From the IMG/VR virus record IMGVR_UViG_3300025437_000009: a stretch of DNA of 64,000 nt. One strand, 5' to 3'. The stretch is from a virus (taxonomy: Duplodnaviria > Caudoviricetes). Position numbers and translations under genes: made by a program. This document shows positions 4,110-32,690 of the stretch, piece after piece (position 1 is the first letter of the stretch; each line of letters starts with the position of its first letter). A model generated the notes under the pieces. That model saw only the letters and a program-made list of their open reading frames with translations. It was not told the DNA's origin and ran no database searches.

Positions 4110-4316
4110 TTAGCTATTTAAAGTATTAAACGGACTATAATCTTCGGTGTTGTCTTTATGCAACACAATATTAACTCGATTATCTACAGATAATGCTGGA
4201 ACATTATCCGCTTCATTATATTCATAATCGATATTATTAACCCAATCCGTAAACTCTCGTTCTTCTGGAAAAGCATCATTATATTCATTATCGATAATCA
4301 TATTCTTGAGTTTCAT
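4110..4316 (-). CDS. small acidic hypothetical protein
   Basis: 68 aa ORF with AAGGA RBS. Confidence 0.6.
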   Translation of the reverse strand: MKLKNMIIDNEYNDAFPEEREFTDWVNNIDYEYNEADNVPALSVDNRVNIVLHKDNTEDYSPFNTLNS

Positions 4317-5212: not shown

Positions 5213-5253
5213 AAACCCGCCAAAGTGTGCATTGTTAAGAGGCATGGCGGGTA
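5213..5253 (-). terminator. probable terminator after groEL
   Basis: ACCCGCCA...TGGCGGGTTT hairpin with a short T tract. Confidence 0.5.
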
Positions 5254-9686: not shown

Positions 9687-10911
9687 TGGTTTCTGTCACA
9701 ATAGTTGGAAAATAACGCAGGAATATATCTTGTGCGTTGTTGCGTTTTGCTAGAATCTTCTTTTTAATTTCTGTGTAGAAATTCCATGCCAGCGGAACAA
9801 ATACAACACGTTCTTTGGGATCAGTTATACTATCTAACCATTCGATACTGACCACAGGAATACTAGTGCCCGGGCAATATAGTCCTTGCTTTAAAGGATT
9901 GTCATCAATTACGCAGTCCAGGTGTATGTTACTGGCATTGATCAGTGTCATACCTTTAGCGGCAGCACCGTAACCAACAATAGTATATCCCCAACCACGA
10001 TACTCATCAATTTGATCTTTGAGTTGATCAATTAACTCCTGTACACCTGTAGCCCACTTTGTATAAGTCTCAGGTGTCTGTAGTCCTAGTGCTGATTCTA
10101 CAGCTAGGATATTTTGAATACGTTCTTGATTAGCAGGTTGTTTGGCTAATATAAAGATATAGCTGGTTCCATGAATAGGAGTTTTAATTACATCAATTAA
10201 ATATAGACCAGCACGTTCAGCCAGTCGGCGCATTGATTCTGCATTGTAGTAGCTGATATGCTCGTGATAGATGGTATCAAACTCACCGTTAGGAACCATG
10301 TCAGCTTGACTGGTAGAAATAAAAATCTTACCTTCGTTGTTTAAGTGCTCGCGGCAAAGTTTTAAGTATGCCAGTGGATCTGGAATATGTGCAAATGAAT
10401 TTTGTGTAGTAATAACTGTAAACTTGGTATGTATGTTATCAGAGGTTTCTTTATCCCAAAATCTACACCATATGCGATGATTCGCACTAGACTTTTCGTA
10501 TAAGTTTTCTGCTGGATCTACACCAAATGTCTTATAACCTAACTTCTTAAATGCATCTAATTGGCTACCATCATTACAGCCAATGTCCAATACTGTACCC
10601 ACCATTGGTTTAGCGAACTGTTCAGTTACAAAGCGAGCATACCAGTCCATGTATTCTACATAGGTATTTGATGTACCTGACACATACAGATAGTGTGTGT
10701 AAATCAATTCAGGATTAACTGCGTGTGTAAGTTGTAGGTGATTACAGTCTTCACAACGATTAATAGCTAGGGGGAACCACTGATCTGTATCACGTACTCC
10801 GCCATGCTCTTGAAAGCTGTTGGCCAAGGGTTGATCTTGGAGATCCAGGGTCAAGGTTAAGTCTTGGCCGCCGCAGGCCAAACACTCATCGATTTGTGTG
10901 TAATCTTCCAT
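9676..10911 (-). CDS. NDP-sugar C-methyltransferase
   Basis: Zn motifs CLACG and CEDC, VLDIGCNDG, FDTIYHEH, GYGAAAKG. Confidence 0.88.
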   Translation of the reverse strand: MEDYTQIDECLACGGQDLTLTLDLQDQPLANSFQEHGGVRDTDQWFPLAINRCEDCNHLQLTHAVNPELIYTHYLYVSGTSNTYVEYMDWYARFVTEQFAKPMVGTVLDIGCNDGSQLDAFKKLGYKTFGVDPAENLYEKSSANHRIWCRFWDKETSDNIHTKFTVITTQNSFAHIPDPLAYLKLCREHLNNEGKIFISTSQADMVPNGEFDTIYHEHISYYNAESMRRLAERAGLYLIDVIKTPIHGTSYIFILAKQPANQERIQNILAVESALGLQTPETYTKWATGVQELIDQLKDQIDEYRGWGYTIVGYGAAAKGMTLINASNIHLDCVIDDNPLKQGLYCPGTSIPVVSIEWLDSITDPKERVVFVPLAWNFYTEIKKKILAKRNNAQDIFLRYFPTIVTETNED

Positions 10912-11636
10912 TAATTTTTAATAGCAGTTCCGTTGGGAGCGATTGCCCCTTCAACACCAAGATTTTGAATTTCATGTACATGGTCGGGATTTAAGAACTT
11001 AGCAAGTACGTGTTCAATATCCACATATCCACCTGCAGCTAAACGTTCGGCAAAGAACAGGAAGCTATCTTCATATACACCAATAACTTCGTCTAAGAGT
11101 GCAATAGGCCAAGACCATAAGCGAGCCATGTACTGGAATGGTACTTGTGTTACTTCTGGAGGGAATTGACTTTGATGTTTTGGTCCAATAATAATTTTAT
11201 CTAAATTATCTGTTTGATCGTATGTAGCAGGATCAAACAAATCATTTAATATATAACGTCCAGACATTTTATGAATACGATTAATTCCAACAAAGGCATT
11301 TTCTTGTTTGAGAATACGCAACACACGACCAAAACACATGATTTCTGTGCCGTTCTTTACTACGTCCCAATTATCATTGTCGTACATGTCAATAACGTCT
11401 TGATCTTGGCTACAGTCAATGAACACGTCGCAGTTTTGTCTTATTACTGCTTCTTGATGTGGCTTAATCGAATCCCCACAGCATTCCATTACTATAATTC
11501 TAGCATCAGGGATTTTACGCTTAATGCTATTGATAGTTTCAATAGTTTGATCTAACCGTTGCTTAGGTGCAAACACACCAAACTTACTGTTAATAGCTGA
11601 AGTTACGATAAAACAATGTTTTACTTGCTGAGCCAT
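10911..11636 (-). CDS. hypothetical protein, possibly glycosyltransferase-like
   Basis: ORF inside the glycan island with FIVTSAI and KMSGRY motifs. Start moved to MAQQVK. Confidence 0.6.
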   Translation of the reverse strand: MAQQVKHCFIVTSAINSKFGVFAPKQRLDQTIETINSIKRKIPDARIIVMECCGDSIKPHQEAVIRQNCDVFIDCSQDQDVIDMYDNDNWDVVKNGTEIMCFGRVLRILKQENAFVGINRIHKMSGRYILNDLFDPATYDQTDNLDKIIIGPKHQSQFPPEVTQVPFQYMARLWSWPIALLDEVIGVYEDSFLFFAERLAAGGYVDIEHVLAKFLNPDHVHEIQNLGVEGAIAPNGTAIKN

Positions 11637-20157: not shown

Positions 20158-20592
20158 TCAATCAAGTTTGATGACTTCGACTCCGGATCGGGTAAGGAAA
20201 TCCACTCCCTCACTGCTCCGATAGCTATTTCGATAGATAACACTACCAATGCCAGACTGGTATACCAATTTGGCGCAATCAAGGCAAGGACTATGGGTAA
20301 TAAACATAGTGGCACCGAGACCCGAATCACTGCTTTTCGCCAGCTTTGCAATGGCGTTAGTTTCTGCGTGGAGCACTTCTGGTTTTGTTTTGAGTTCATG
20401 ATGTCCGTCTTCTCTCAGTTCTACTATTTCTTCACAATCGTTTTCCCAACCTGCAGGCATACCATTGTATCCAATTGAGATAATGCGATCATCTTTGACA
20501 ATGATAGCACCCACATGCAGTCTACGTGCATGACTAAGTTCCGCAAATATTTCTGCGGTTTTCATGTATGCTTGAACTAGCTTTGGCTTCAC
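20158..20592 (-). CDS. dCMP deaminase
   Basis: SIGYNG, HAETNAI, SPCLDC. Confidence 0.92.
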   Translation of the reverse strand: MKPKLVQAYMKTAEIFAELSHARRLHVGAIIVKDDRIISIGYNGMPAGWENDCEEIVELREDGHHELKTKPEVLHAETNAIAKLAKSSDSGLGATMFITHSPCLDCAKLVYQSGIGSVIYRNSYRSSEGVDFLTRSGVEVIKLD

Positions 20593-20765
20593 CGACCACG
20601 TCCTGCTGATTTTTTTGCTGGTTTGTTTGTGCTGACTTGACCACCGTGTTTGGCGGCTTGCACTTGTGCCGTAGTTTTAGTAGGCACTTTGGGATTGGCC
20701 GCTACTGCTTTTGCAGCATTGGCCATATTGATAAATGGGTTTGGGGATTTTTTTTGTTCAGTCAT
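20589..20765 (-). CDS. small basic hypothetical protein (58 aa)
   Basis: Read manually: MTEQKKSPNPFINMA...SAGRGR. Coupled to both neighbours by overlapping stop/start codons. Confidence 0.65.
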   Translation of the reverse strand: MTEQKKSPNPFINMANAAKAVAANPKVPTKTTAQVQAAKHGGQVSTNKPAKKSAGRGR

Positions 20766-21307
20766 TATTCGCTTAATATATTTCCAAAATCGTATTGTAT
20801 TCTAAGTCCGAGGTATTCTTGTATGCCACTACCATTGGTATTTTTCCAGGTATTGAGTAAACCGCAGGCACTCCATTTAGCAGTTTCATCACCAATCTTA
20901 CGGCAGGCTTCGCCGTACCAAAAATCTTTCATTTGGCTAAATGCTACACCTCTATCATTTACGTTATAATAATGGTTGGCTAAAGTCCACCCTACGTGAG
21001 TTGCCCAAAGATCGTTGTGCCAGAATTTCCAATCTAATACTGCGGCTTCAGACCAAAGTTCGGGAGTAGTATATTTTCCATTTATCCAGGTGTTTTGATC
21101 TCGGTAACTATTTCTATAAACTCGAGCACCAACAGAAACGTTGTCGATAAATTCATAGTTTAATGCAAGACCTGGATTAAAGTCATTTGCTTTATAATTG
21201 TTTTCTAGGTGCACACCCGCAACACCAATTTCTGCCCAAACATCACCTTGCTCTGCATAAGCTATCGGCGATGCAAGTAAAGCCAATACCAAAATAATTT
21301 TTTTCAC
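20765..21307 (-). CDS. secreted/outer-membrane beta-barrel-like protein
   Basis: Signal peptide (M)KKIILVLALLASPIAYA. Alternating aromatic strands FNPGLALNYEF and LGLRIQYDF. Confidence 0.55.
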   Translation of the reverse strand: MKKIILVLALLASPIAYAEQGDVWAEIGVAGVHLENNYKANDFNPGLALNYEFIDNVSVGARVYRNSYRDQNTWINGKYTTPELWSEAAVLDWKFWHNDLWATHVGWTLANHYYNVNDRGVAFSQMKDFWYGEACRKIGDETAKWSACGLLNTWKNTNGSGIQEYLGLRIQYDFGNILSE

Positions 21308-21337
21308 GGTTTTACCCAAAAAGTTGTTAGAGTAGTT

Positions 21338-21366
21338 ATTGTATAATATCGACAGTTATTTGTCAA
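21338..21366 (-). promoter_or_regulatory. sigma70-type promoter
   Basis: TTGACA-17-TACAAT. Confidence 0.75.
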
Positions 21367-21374
21367 GAAATTTG

Positions 21375-21450
21375 TGGTGCCCTCTGTCGGATTCGAACTG
21401 ACCACCTACTGATTACAAATCAGTTGCTCTACCTAATGAGCTAAGAGGGC
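21375..21450 (-). tRNA. tRNA-Thr(UGU)
   Basis: Cloverleaf, anticodon loop TTTGTAA, encoded CCA. Confidence 0.95.
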
Positions 21451-21470
21451 ATAATACTATATTTAATACT

Positions 21471-21721
21471 AATAAGTTTGAGCAGACTAAAATCTGCTTT
21501 TCGACAGTGGACCACAATGCTAACGGGTTGCGATCCCGCAATAATAGCTCGCCTTCCCAGGCTCTTTCATGGTATCTAGCAACGCTTTCACAGTTTTAAA
21601 ATTTCTTATACCCTCGGAAGTATCCGATATTGCCTTGCCAGGCCACGGGGCTGGTACTACGACTGTTACTCACACTCCCACATGTATCAGATGGTCGCCA
21701 CACCGTCTGCTCAAACTTATT
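21471..21721 (-). ncRNA. candidate ~250-nt structured RNA
   Basis: 17-bp perfect terminal inverted repeat with internal hairpins and no credible ORF. Strand is inferred from the neighbours and one GNRA loop. Confidence 0.5.
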
Positions 21722-21726
21722 AATTC

Positions 21727-21813
21727 TGGCGGAGAGTATAGGAGTCGAACCTATCCACCCATTGCTGGATGACGCCTTAGCAGGGCGTTGCCTTACCGCT
21801 CGGCCAACTCTCC
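21727..21813 (-). tRNA. tRNA-Ser(GCU)
   Basis: Long variable arm, loop CTGCTAA, G73-CCA. Confidence 0.93.
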
Positions 21814-21821
21814 CAAAACTT

Positions 21822-22019
21822 TTATTCAGCGGCTTCTGCTGTTTCTACTACAGGTGCTACATAACCTAAATCACGAATTCTACGTTCAATTTTGGCTTTG
21901 ACCTTTTTCTTACTGGTTGTAGCCAGTAACTCAGTTAATTGTTTACCACTTAAACTAACAATCTTTACTCGGCCATCTTTTGTATAACCAGGTTTTTTAC
22001 GTTGTAAATTTTTTGACAT
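21822..22019 (-). CDS. small basic hypothetical protein
   Basis: 65 aa ORF with AGGA RBS. Confidence 0.65.
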   Translation of the reverse strand: MSKNLQRKKPGYTKDGRVKIVSLSGKQLTELLATTSKKKVKAKIERRIRDLGYVAPVVETAEAAE

Positions 22020-23192: not shown

Positions 23193-23411
23193 TTATTTTA
23201 CTTTTGCTAGATAATCTGTCATGTTCAGATTACCCGACTGTGCTTCTAATAATGCATCTACTGCGGTTACAAATCCATTGTTTTCTTTAGCACGTACTTT
23301 AAGTTCTCTTGTACGTTGTGCCGCGGCAATAACCAAATCAAAACGACCTTGCCCAGTTTTTTCAACGCACTTTTCAACATCTACCTGTGATGCACGAGTT
23401 TCTTTTTTCAT
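23193..23411 (-). CDS. rpoZ: RNA polymerase omega subunit
   Basis: GRFDLVIAAAQRTREL matches the omega signature (xRFxLVxxAAxRAxxL). 72 aa. Confidence 0.75.
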   Translation of the reverse strand: MKKETRASQVDVEKCVEKTGQGRFDLVIAAAQRTRELKVRAKENNGFVTAVDALLEAQSGNLNMTDYLAKVK

Positions 23412-23545: not shown

Positions 23546-24052
23546 TTAAGACTTTGTCAAATATTTTAAGATTCTATCTGGACCTAATGCAAAGTATTGC
23601 CGTTTTGGTTTGCAATAGTTCTTAAATGAAAAATTTTTATCTAACGGATTACTATATACCTTTACAATTTCATTGTTTTCAAATAGTGCAACGTATTGCC
23701 AGAGTCGAGTTAACTCGTCAAGATCTCGATCAGTTCCAACGTAATTTTTTATTCGTAGTGTAAATTGACTGTCACTATCAACTATTGGGATTAGGTCCGG
23801 TCCGTGGATATCAACATATGGAATTAGGAACGCAGTATTGCTTACCGCACAAACATGATCTACTCCCGAGTCTTTTAACTCCGAGTGTGCTGATTGATAT
23901 CTTTTAATTTGATCCCAAGAATTGATGTTTGCTGGCAGTGGCAAACTAAAAACCACTGTGCGACAGCCCGTAAAAAGATCTGCATAATCATTACAATTAT
24001 GCAGTCCTTTAAGTTTTTTAGTATTTAGATTTTCTTGAAAATCAACAGCCAT
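23546..24052 (-). CDS. degenerate peroxiredoxin (Prx5/redoxin)-like protein
   Basis: DLFTGCRTVVFSLP and GVDHVCAVSN resemble Prx5, but PxxxTxxC is missing. Confidence 0.5.
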   Translation of the reverse strand: MAVDFQENLNTKKLKGLHNCNDYADLFTGCRTVVFSLPLPANINSWDQIKRYQSAHSELKDSGVDHVCAVSNTAFLIPYVDIHGPDLIPIVDSDSQFTLRIKNYVGTDRDLDELTRLWQYVALFENNEIVKVYSNPLDKNFSFKNYCKPKRQYFALGPDRILKYLTKS

Positions 24053-24056
24053 TGAA

Positions 24057-25046
24057 TTACGATTTAATAATACCGTCCAATAGTCCTGCTTGGAAGAACG
24101 TTTGATACTTATCGTATAATGGCTTAGTTAGTTCTTTATACTGTGCTGTTTCTTCTTCAGTTAATTCACGGTATGTAACACCGATATCATCGTGATTATC
24201 TTTAGCAGCAAATTCTTCAGAATCATTAACTGACCATTGACGTTCAAGTTTGCTTGCGTATAAACTTGCTTCTGTAAATGCCTGTTGATCAACGGCGTCC
24301 AAAGACTCCCAGAAACTCTTGCTAATAATAATACTTGTTAAGAACAAATTATGTTTTGTATTAATAAGATGTTTTTTGTTTGTGCCTTGGAACTGTGCTA
24401 GATAACGTGGAATTGTTGTTTCTAATAAGTTGGCATTAAACCCTTCTTCAGCCACTTTCTTGGCCCAATCTCTAATAGAGAATGATTCAGGTTTACTACC
24501 CAATGCTTGTACAGTATCTACTGTTACTGGATTAGTACCAATAGCATAAACTAATCCTTTCATGTCCTCTAAACTATTAATAGGAGTTTCAGAAGCCACA
24601 CAGCGGAAACCACCAGAGTAAGTAAATGCCATGCCCTTAGCCGGACTATTTTCTTCTACTGAATCTAACAGGCCTTTACCAATTGGTCCTTCAAACACAC
24701 GAGTTGCATGATCATGATCACGGAATAAGAATGGCATCTCAAGTACCCAAAAATCTGGATTACACCACATAGCTAATTCATTGATATGAACTTGACTAAT
24801 TTCAATGTTTCCTTGTTCCATTTCAACGATTGGGCCGTTGTCTCGGTAAAAGTTACCCATATTGCCTTTGTACTGTTCATGCTCTTTTGCCACTTGGTCA
24901 AAGTAATGTGTTGGGGTAAAAATTTCAATTTCGTATTTTCCATCAGTTAATTCAGCAATTTTAGCACTAAACGCTTCGGCTGTACGCAGGAATAGTTTCA
25001 CAGGCTCGTGTGCGATTAACCAACGGATTTTTCTTGTTTGACTCAT
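24057..25046 (-). CDS. dctP: TRAP-type solute-binding protein (DctP-like)
   Basis: ELTDGKYEIEIF, LEMPFLFRDHDHA, YSGGFR, INSLEDMKGL. Start ATG 25046 with GGAG RBS. Confidence 0.7.
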   Translation of the reverse strand: MSQTRKIRWLIAHEPVKLFLRTAEAFSAKIAELTDGKYEIEIFTPTHYFDQVAKEHEQYKGNMGNFYRDNGPIVEMEQGNIEISQVHINELAMWCNPDFWVLEMPFLFRDHDHATRVFEGPIGKGLLDSVEENSPAKGMAFTYSGGFRCVASETPINSLEDMKGLVYAIGTNPVTVDTVQALGSKPESFSIRDWAKKVAEEGFNANLLETTIPRYLAQFQGTNKKHLINTKHNLFLTSIIISKSFWESLDAVDQQAFTEASLYASKLERQWSVNDSEEFAAKDNHDDIGVTYRELTEEETAQYKELTKPLYDKYQTFFQAGLLDGIIKS

Positions 25047-25156
25047 TTGGGGATTCTCCACTTTCGTAGTAAGATTATATAGTATTATTTATGTCAATAA
25101 ACAACTTTCAATCAAAACTCAACAATAAATAGTTGTATCTTAGTAGTAATCAATCA

Positions 25157-32395: not shown

Positions 32396-32407
32396 TGTGT
32401 ATTGTAA

Positions 32408-32436
32408 AGTATACTAGTATATATGCCCCGTGTCAA
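32408..32436 (-). promoter_or_regulatory. sigma70-type promoter directly upstream of tRNA-Tyr
   Basis: TTGACA-17-TATACT. Confidence 0.8.
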
Positions 32437-32439
32437 GTG

Positions 32440-32690
32440 GGGTGGTAACCCGAATGGACGTTTACCCGCTCGTCATCTAGTATACTTTAGAATACCCTCT
32501 CTTTCGAAAGGATATGCTAGGGCTATACCCCAGCCTGTAATTTTTTACACCACACAAGGTGCTCCATCCCACAGTCCGCCCATTTAGCTGTTTATAGTGT
32601 AGCAAGGATCTCGTTCCCTATACCACTTTACTGCCGATCAAAGATAGTCTGGCCAAAAAACGTACCAGTCATCTTCATAACCTCAATCCA
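32440..32690 (-). ncRNA. candidate structured RNA
   Basis: 10-bp stem with GAAA tetraloop (ATATCCTTTC-GAAA-GAGAGGGTAT) plus several smaller hairpins. No ORF with an RBS. Confidence 0.45.

Follow-up and report, generated by a model that had tools for sequence, protein, structure and literature searches.

A single-copy structured RNA gene at the tRNA-Ser/tRNA-Thr junction of phage tRNA islands

Between the genes for tRNA-Ser and tRNA-Thr, a 64,000-nt stretch of phage DNA (IMG/VR record IMGVR_UViG_3300025437_000009; hereafter the window) carries a 255-nt element that is almost certainly a structured RNA gene. It occupies positions 21469-21723 of the minus strand, delimited by the outermost base pair of its closing helix P1. 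These boundaries were drawn from the covariation of P1, and the covariance model R1 matches 21461-21728 with 304 bits. On balance, we favour a reading in which the gene product is an early-expressed, trans-acting and end-clamped stable non-coding RNA that is released by tRNA processing and serves as a specific ligand or scaffold. The family has so far been seen only in tRNA islands of uncultivated giant T4-like phages, and it is absent from Rfam 15.

A sequence-only reading of the window had described the element as enclosed by a perfect 17-bp helix. The 17-mer and its reverse complement lie exactly where that reading had placed them, no further perfect copy of the 17-mer occurs in the 64-kb window, and the perfect inverted repeat actually extends to 18 bp (21470-21487 and 21705-21722). 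It is the sole perfect inverted repeat of at least 17 bp within 600 nt in the window, for a chance expectation of about 0.001 by our own arithmetic (64,000 x 300 / 4^17). The 17-nt arm starts, as described, 5 nt past the CCA of tRNA-Ser(GCU) (21727-21813, minus strand, CCA encoded), the gene directly upstream of the RNA; once the outer pairs supported by homologues are counted, P1 starts 3 nt past this CCA. On the other side, tRNA-Thr(UGU) (21375-21450, minus strand) follows 18 nt downstream of P1. Both genes were predicted by ARAGORN and lie, like the RNA, on the minus strand, as do all 25 tRNA-type genes found in the window, each of the 25 listed genes encoding its CCA. The G+C content across the element is 0.48-0.52, as in the tRNAs, and 0.27-0.45 in the surroundings. 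The minimum free energy amounts to -92.1 kcal/mol for the minus strand (z = -5.2) and -76 kcal/mol for the plus strand.

The first homologues were reached through the upstream gene for a 368-aa protein, which pointed to four IMG/VR contigs; three of these carry a copy of the RNA of about 80% identity. A first scan of IMG/VR with a 14-mer was too unspecific and returned mostly chance matches; pattern scans of IMG/VR and the JGI metagenomes with invariant words enlarged the set to about 50 loci. These comprise 32 distinct homologous sequences from uncultivated phage and metagenome contigs, which are 58-99% identical (mean 76%). A blastn comparison of three family members with 50,697 INPHARED phage records gave no match, nor did one of the window copy with E. 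coli genomes, and a pattern scan for the P6 module described below returned 0 matches in 185,579 GTDB genomes (one per prokaryote species). The carriers are T4-like, as four of five related contigs encode a Gp23 capsid protein, and two carrier contigs of about 355 kb are 98-100% complete according to CheckV. Several contig names suggest that the carriers come from lakes. DNA and covariance-model searches of five contigs, including the two near-complete T4-like genomes of about 355 kb, found one copy per genome.

The consensus fold, curated on 32 sequences, comprises 13 nested helices with 68 pairs. In the MAFFT alignment, standard pairs occupy 95.1% of 2171 cells, compared to 34-39% after a shift of the 3' partners by 1-3 columns. 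Changes on both sides of a pair, and thus compensatory, were seen in 37 of the 68 pairs against 7-13 in the shifted controls, and the covariation score reaches 0.306 against 0.04-0.07. For four of five measures, none of 500 shuffles matched the observed value, and the alignment fitted to R1 agrees with the MAFFT result. Compensatory pairs occur in all helices but P3a. There are 122 G-U cells against 12 A-C cells, which argues that the pairing works on the tRNA strand only. The unpaired core is constrained as well: although the sequences are only 58-99% identical, 60 of its 121 positions reach 90% conservation or more, 45 of them without any variation, and such conservation points to a specific function rather than to a mere spacer. 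An early consensus of four sequences had included a 'P2' made of UGUGG and CCACA, which was superseded at 32 sequences by a GGN/NCC hairpin together with P3 and P4.

In overall layout, the P1 clamp is followed by the mini-hairpin P2 and the long-range helix P3, which leads into a central junction with two arms, each forking into a three-way junction. The 19-nt 5' strand of P1 (21705-21723, minus strand) pairs with 21469-21487. Compensatory changes affect 13-14 of the 19 pairs, 97% of cells pair, and G-U pairs fit only the minus-strand reading. The length of P1 is constant across the 32 sequences except for a 1-nt insertion in L147. The local alternative hairpins that the sequence-only reading had proposed for the two terminal arms are peculiar to the window, since in relatives the sequence of each arm tracks its P1 partner and not the invariant neighbouring segments. 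P2 (21693-21704, minus strand) is a 3-bp hairpin with the 6-nt loop GUGGCG (21696-21701). All three of its pairs covary, with variants GC/AU/GU and UA/CG/AU, and pair in 100% of cells, and the loop is invariant in 32 of 32 sequences. P3 consists of three segments with a near-invariant internal loop, in which AU stands opposite CGAAAAG. Its 5' strand (21678-21691, minus strand) reads UCUG, AU, ACn, U, GUGG and pairs with the 3' strand (21493-21510, minus strand), which reads CCAC, nGU, the internal-loop sequence CGAAAAG (in 31 of 32 sequences) and CAGA. The n:n pair of P3 covaries (UA 13, AU 12, CG 2, GC 2), and its remaining pairs are invariant apart from four U-A to U-G changes.

The two arms diverge behind the conserved junction strand J3/5 (21667-21677, minus strand). 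In the P5 arm (21590-21666, minus strand), P5 itself (21662-21666 with 21590-21594, all five pairs covarying) encloses J5/6, the P6 domain and J6/5, which contains the conserved word AUUUUAAAAC. In six relatives, J5/6 holds an additional, optional hairpin capped by a GNRA loop (GCAA or GAAA). Optional peripheral hairpins are known from large folded RNAs. The P6 three-way junction (21608-21652, minus strand) is formed by P6 (CCC/GGG plus an R-Y pair), the variable hairpin P6a and the hairpin P6b (21614-21627, minus strand) with its invariant loop UACU; P6a and the closing pair of P6b covary. The UACU loop is a candidate pseudoknot partner of AGUA at the end of J3/5: the 4-bp pairing is possible in 95% of cells, and UACU never varies. 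The strand J5/4 (21573-21589, minus strand), which reads GAA...AGAU, has conserved ends and a variable middle. In the P4 arm (21512-21572, minus strand), the helix P4 (CCAU 21569-21572 with GUGG 21512-21515) encloses P7 (21551-21562, minus strand), a hairpin with a mostly GNRA loop, and the bipartite hairpin P8 (21519-21548, minus strand), both of which covary strongly. P4 is only 4 bp long, and two independent double changes, in L125 and L129, preserve its pairing.

Three internal hairpins named by the sequence-only reading thus proved real, corresponding to P7, P6b and P8b, and compensatory changes preserve them in homologues. Among the unpaired strands of the 32 sequences, no further helix is kept in at least 85% of sequences and no consistent J5/4-J3/5 helix was found, the only candidates being AGUA:UACU and a weak J3/5-J5/4 link. 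A kissing contact between the loops of P2 and P8 was discarded, as it involves variable positions without covariation. A coding role was likewise rejected, the short AUG-led frame being broken by 1-nt indels in relatives.

The RNA keeps a constant genomic setting behind tRNA-Ser and usually ahead of tRNA-Thr. Of the 42 loci that extend to an upstream tRNA, 40 have tRNA-Ser there (anticodon GCU, ACU or UGA), and the next downstream tRNA is tRNA-Thr(UGU) wherever one is within reach, always on the same strand. The distance to the 5' tRNA is 0-53 nt or about 1.67 kb. To the 3' tRNA, most loci have either 11-48 nt or about 1.6 kb, and a few have 586-815 nt. The long spacers consist of gene cassettes, which encode either a DctP-like protein and a redoxin or a radical-SAM/SPASM protein. 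In T4, the genes for tRNA-Ser and tRNA-Thr are adjacent in the same order with a spacer of 7 nt, which indicates that the site of the RNA is an ancestral junction of T4-type tRNA clusters. The other neighbours (genes for the omega-like, dCMP-deaminase-like, DctP-like plus redoxin and 368-aa proteins) are shuffled and none is constant, so that no candidate partner protein co-occurs constantly with the RNA among the neighbouring genes. A riboswitch or other cis-acting leader was considered and rejected, as the downstream neighbour varies (tRNA-Thr, DctP-like or other), P1 is a fixed 19-bp helix and there is no terminator.

Where the RNA abuts tRNA-Ser, as in the window, it has no promoter of its own, the 70 nt upstream being the tRNA itself. 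No promoter or terminator adjoins the RNA in the window, and no terminator was found 3' of it in the window copy or in the relatives. Where the RNA is detached by at least 40 nt (loci L081, L142, L164, L133, L147, L138, L001, L167, L151, L027 and L153), it is preceded by a near-consensus sigma70-type promoter (TTGACA or TTGCAT, a 17-nt spacer, TATAAT or TATACT) whose -10 box ends 3-13 nt ahead of P1. Promoters of this type are the 'early' promoters of T4. For lack of an own promoter next to tRNA-Ser, the RNA of the window must be co-transcribed. Both routes of production place the 5' end at the foot of P1, and no other observation speaks more strongly for the folded RNA as the actual product. 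In many relatives, a DctP-like gene follows 35-45 nt downstream with its own TATAAATA motif, the late-promoter word of T4, and there the RNA could also be part of a longer transcript.

tRNAs with an encoded CCA are standard substrates of RNase P and 3' trimming, both in bacterial tRNA maturation and in the processing of the T4 tRNA cluster. By analogy, the RNA of the window would be cut from the tRNA-operon transcript by tRNA-maturation enzymes of the host. Its 5' end would arise from an endonuclease cut and trimming past the CCA of tRNA-Ser. The 3' end would result from RNase P cleavage at tRNA-Thr, followed by 3' exonucleases that are halted by P1, and the P1 clamp would then stabilise the RNA.

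Among known RNAs, rnaC (species 1, 139 nt) and rnaD (species 2, 119 nt) of T4 come closest in context and presumed biogenesis. They too are structured RNAs other than tRNAs, lie on the tRNA strand inside a T4-type tRNA cluster and are presumably freed from tRNA precursor transcripts by tRNA-processing enzymes. The RNA of the window is twice as long and far more branched, and it sits at the Ser-Thr junction, whereas rnaC and rnaD follow tRNA-Arg. T4 rnaC ends in a GGUUCGAAUCC arm, in contrast to the RNA of the window, which has no tRNA-like T-arm. The two are not homologous to it, since R1, run with filters off on the tRNA region of T4, scored no more than 3.6 bits, which is noise.

Comparison with Rfam 15 at gathering thresholds identified in the whole window only tRNAs and, elsewhere, an abiF motif. 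At E<=10, four divergent members (21300-21900 of the window together with L133, L134 and L138) gave no match to RNase P RNA, 6S RNA, tmRNA, SRP RNA, Y RNA, ROOL or GOLLD. A 2023 catalogue drawn from IMG/VR is described as comprising 10,006 candidate viral RNAs (PMC10690425). Protein searches of five related contigs, two of them near-complete, revealed no gene for TROVE (Ro60), RtcB, reverse transcriptase (RVT_1), RNase III, RnpA or SmpB, and the controls of the TROVE search scored.

These searches bear on the possibility that the element is a very divergent housekeeping RNA (RNase P RNA, 6S, tmRNA, SRP RNA or Y RNA) that escaped the covariance models, which we regard as very improbable. Size and the end-clamping helix do recall these classes, and the sequence-only reading had been reminded of RNase P and 6S RNA. 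Bacterial RNase P RNA (type A/B) indeed shares the size class, a terminal helix that joins the ends, a long-range helix behind it that surrounds two domains, and the link to tRNAs, and a phage with at least 25 tRNA genes could gain from an RNase P of its own. The well-supported helices are all nested, however, and form neither a P4-type pseudoknot nor conserved CR-I/CR-V regions, and the related phage genomes encode no RnpA. The words that had been taken as echoes of the conserved regions vary freely among homologues; GAGTAACAGTC, for instance, is replaced by CCU-GUUG(U/C)AGU at the same place in four relatives. A homologue of the omega subunit encoded nearby might hint at a 6S-like ligand of RNA polymerase, but 6S RNA is a mostly double-stranded rod with a large central bubble, and the present fold consists of two forked arms around a central junction. 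For tmRNA, there is neither an ARAGORN prediction in the window nor an SmpB gene in the related genomes. Y RNAs and YrlA (RF00019, RF02553) have in common with our RNA a long conserved stem formed by the ends and a complex module, and some are phage-borne near tRNAs; it differs from them in that it has no tRNA-like module and that genes for TROVE and RtcB are missing from the five contigs. The own-strand Rfam matches all belong to unrelated families and lie far below the gathering score. An element that acts as DNA, be it a miniature inverted-repeat element, a recombination site or a replication origin, is scarcely credible. It would account for the perfect 18-bp terminal inverted repeats and for the gene cassettes of about 1.6 kb that stand on either side in relatives. 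Against it, each genome of about 355 kb holds one copy at a fixed site between the same two tRNA genes, without target-site duplication; eleven internal helices covary; the G-U pairs preserve pairing on one strand only; and the cassettes are also found elsewhere in the tRNA island, as at 23546-25061 of the window. The earlier classification as an unclassified ncRNA therefore stands, backed by strong strand-specific covariation, single copy number, synteny, a promoter where the RNA is detached from tRNA-Ser and the lack of a relevant Rfam match, while the miniature inverted-repeat element was rejected and the resemblance to RNase P and 6S was not borne out.

Two further readings accept an RNA and differ from ours in what it does. 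P1 might be an RNase III-type cut site that separates the tRNAs and neighbouring mRNAs, the RNA being a cis-acting processing or insulating element without a role after excision. RNase III requires about two helical turns, which is the length of the nearly fixed P1 (19-20 bp, with partial sequence conservation), and many relatives hold the RNA between ORF cassettes without a terminator. Yet 45 unpaired bases that never vary and eleven additional conserved helices are more than a processing stem needs, and strong dedicated promoters directed at P1 argue for the RNA itself as the product. RNase III is not encoded in the related phage genomes, and a spacer of 7 nt suffices for T4 at the same Ser-Thr junction. 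We therefore consider this function quite doubtful. Also unlikely, in our view, is an RNA that works free of protein, either as a new large ribozyme, for example on tRNA or its own precursor, or as a self-assembling particle like the nanocages of ROOL and GOLLD. These are large ornate RNAs of phages and prophages that often lie near tRNA islands and form nanocages seen by cryo-EM (bioRxiv 10.1101/2024.12.08.627333), and as ornate phage RNAs beside tRNA islands they are the closest counterparts of the present RNA, which shares with them the lack of a known protein partner or function. The ornate architecture, the conservation of half of the unpaired core, the GNRA loops on P7 and on the optional J5/6 hairpin, which resemble the docking elements of large ribozymes, and the failure to find a candidate partner protein would all suit this idea, as would the conserved self-complementary UUUUAAAA in J6/5, whose A-to-G variants keep pairing with U possible. 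With 255 nt against about 580 and 800 nt, however, the RNA is two to three times below the size of ROOL and GOLLD and shows no resemblance to them in Rfam. None of the self-complementary loops is strictly conserved, at least five members having a disrupted UUUUAAAA palindrome, and there is no cleavage site or catalytic motif that could be named. The missing linked protein gene is weak evidence, since a host protein could serve. A bolder version, to which we give little credence, is a new protein-independent RNA class of giant phages, made early, which as a ribozyme or self-assembling particle captures or processes tRNAs and reshapes the translation apparatus of the host, with GUGGCG as a possible contact.

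Under the favoured reading, the RNA would act in trans at an early stage of infection, its invariant loops and junctions making it a specific ligand or scaffold. The most likely target is a component of the tRNA/translation machinery or of the transcription machinery, the link to translation being drawn solely from the genomic context. The P6 module (CCCC-GUG, an optional hairpin, AAUA, the UACU hairpin and GGGUAY) provides a lead. It reappears nearly letter for letter (R1 positions 78-128, E 9e-8) in a strongly folding RNA of 311 nt (z = -4.9) at 2037-2347 on the minus strand of contig IMGVR_UViG_3300021952_000020 (L134). This RNA belongs to a different phage, where tRNA-Tyr and tRNA-Ala flank it within a densely packed array of 15 tRNAs. 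It is otherwise unalignable, the P6 module and a GAAAAG-containing stretch being all that the two have in common. Such recurrence suggests that the module is a functional unit that can move between RNAs, perhaps a binding site. A weaker and unspecific lead is the UGGCG of the invariant P2 loop, which is complementary to the CGCCA 3' ends of both tRNA-Ser species and of the tRNAs for Asp, Glu and Trp of the phage, so that a contact is possible on grounds of complementarity. T-box RNAs and RNase P grip the 3' ends of tRNAs. A narrower proposal, that the UGGC of the loop binds the 3' end of tRNA-Ser specifically, was dropped because GCCA ends are common to seven phage tRNAs, and a T-box-like reading of codons by an AGN triplet in J3/5 was found to be inconsistent with the anticodons of tRNA-Ser.

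Structured RNAs beside phage tRNA genes have been known since the 1970s, when species 1 and 2 of T4 were described, and ROOL and GOLLD are more recent additions. To our knowledge, none of them has an assigned job. The present family adds a mid-sized and unusually well-defined member, with 13 helices, most of them supported by covariation, and a sharply delimited conserved core. Two routes of biogenesis lead to the same 5' end, and a sub-module is shared with an unrelated RNA from a different phage. This combination of fold, core, shared 5' end and recurring module makes the RNA tractable for structural work and pull-downs, and it could help to explain why phages place ornate RNAs beside their tRNAs.

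Several other features of the tRNA island were recorded. A gene for a 72-aa protein resembling the omega subunit of RNA polymerase (23193-23411, minus strand; NCBIfam rpoZ TIGR00690, 26.6 bits for a cut-off of 23.6) contains the motif GRFDLVIAAAQRTRELK. It lies within the island and is found near the RNA in most relatives; as a matter of speculation, a phage omega might alter the ppGpp control of tRNA promoters. The two-gene cassette of about 1.6 kb that encodes a DctP-type solute-binding protein and a redoxin shifts its place within the tRNA island. It occurs on the 5' or the 3' side of the RNA, on both (L027, 4176-5808 and 6124-7603) or elsewhere, as on the minus strand of the window (23546-25061), and L001 carries it at 9846-11364. 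It is usually preceded by the TATAAATA late-type motif. ARAGORN assigned an A at anticodon position 34 to several tRNAs of relatives, namely Ser(ACU), Phe(AAA) and Leu(AAG), at 7789-7878 in L001 and at 2111-2200, 4123-4199 and 5041-5117 in L081. The window has Ser(GCU) where relatives have Ser(ACU). A 144-aa deaminase is encoded at 20158-20592; it is dCMP deaminase-like, although its ComEB score of 88.6 bits is far under the cut-off of 219 bits, and it is only faintly TadA-like.

Just past tRNA-Thr, a near-consensus promoter on the minus strand (21338-21366; TTGACA, 17 nt, TACAAT) precedes a gene for an outer-membrane beta-barrel-like protein (20765-21319). The Rfam abiF RNA motif of the window lies at 5215-5251 on the minus strand and scores 49.6 bits, for a gathering score of 37. 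A 19-nt inverted repeat at 32399-32495 has arms that are 95% complementary and separated by 59 nt.
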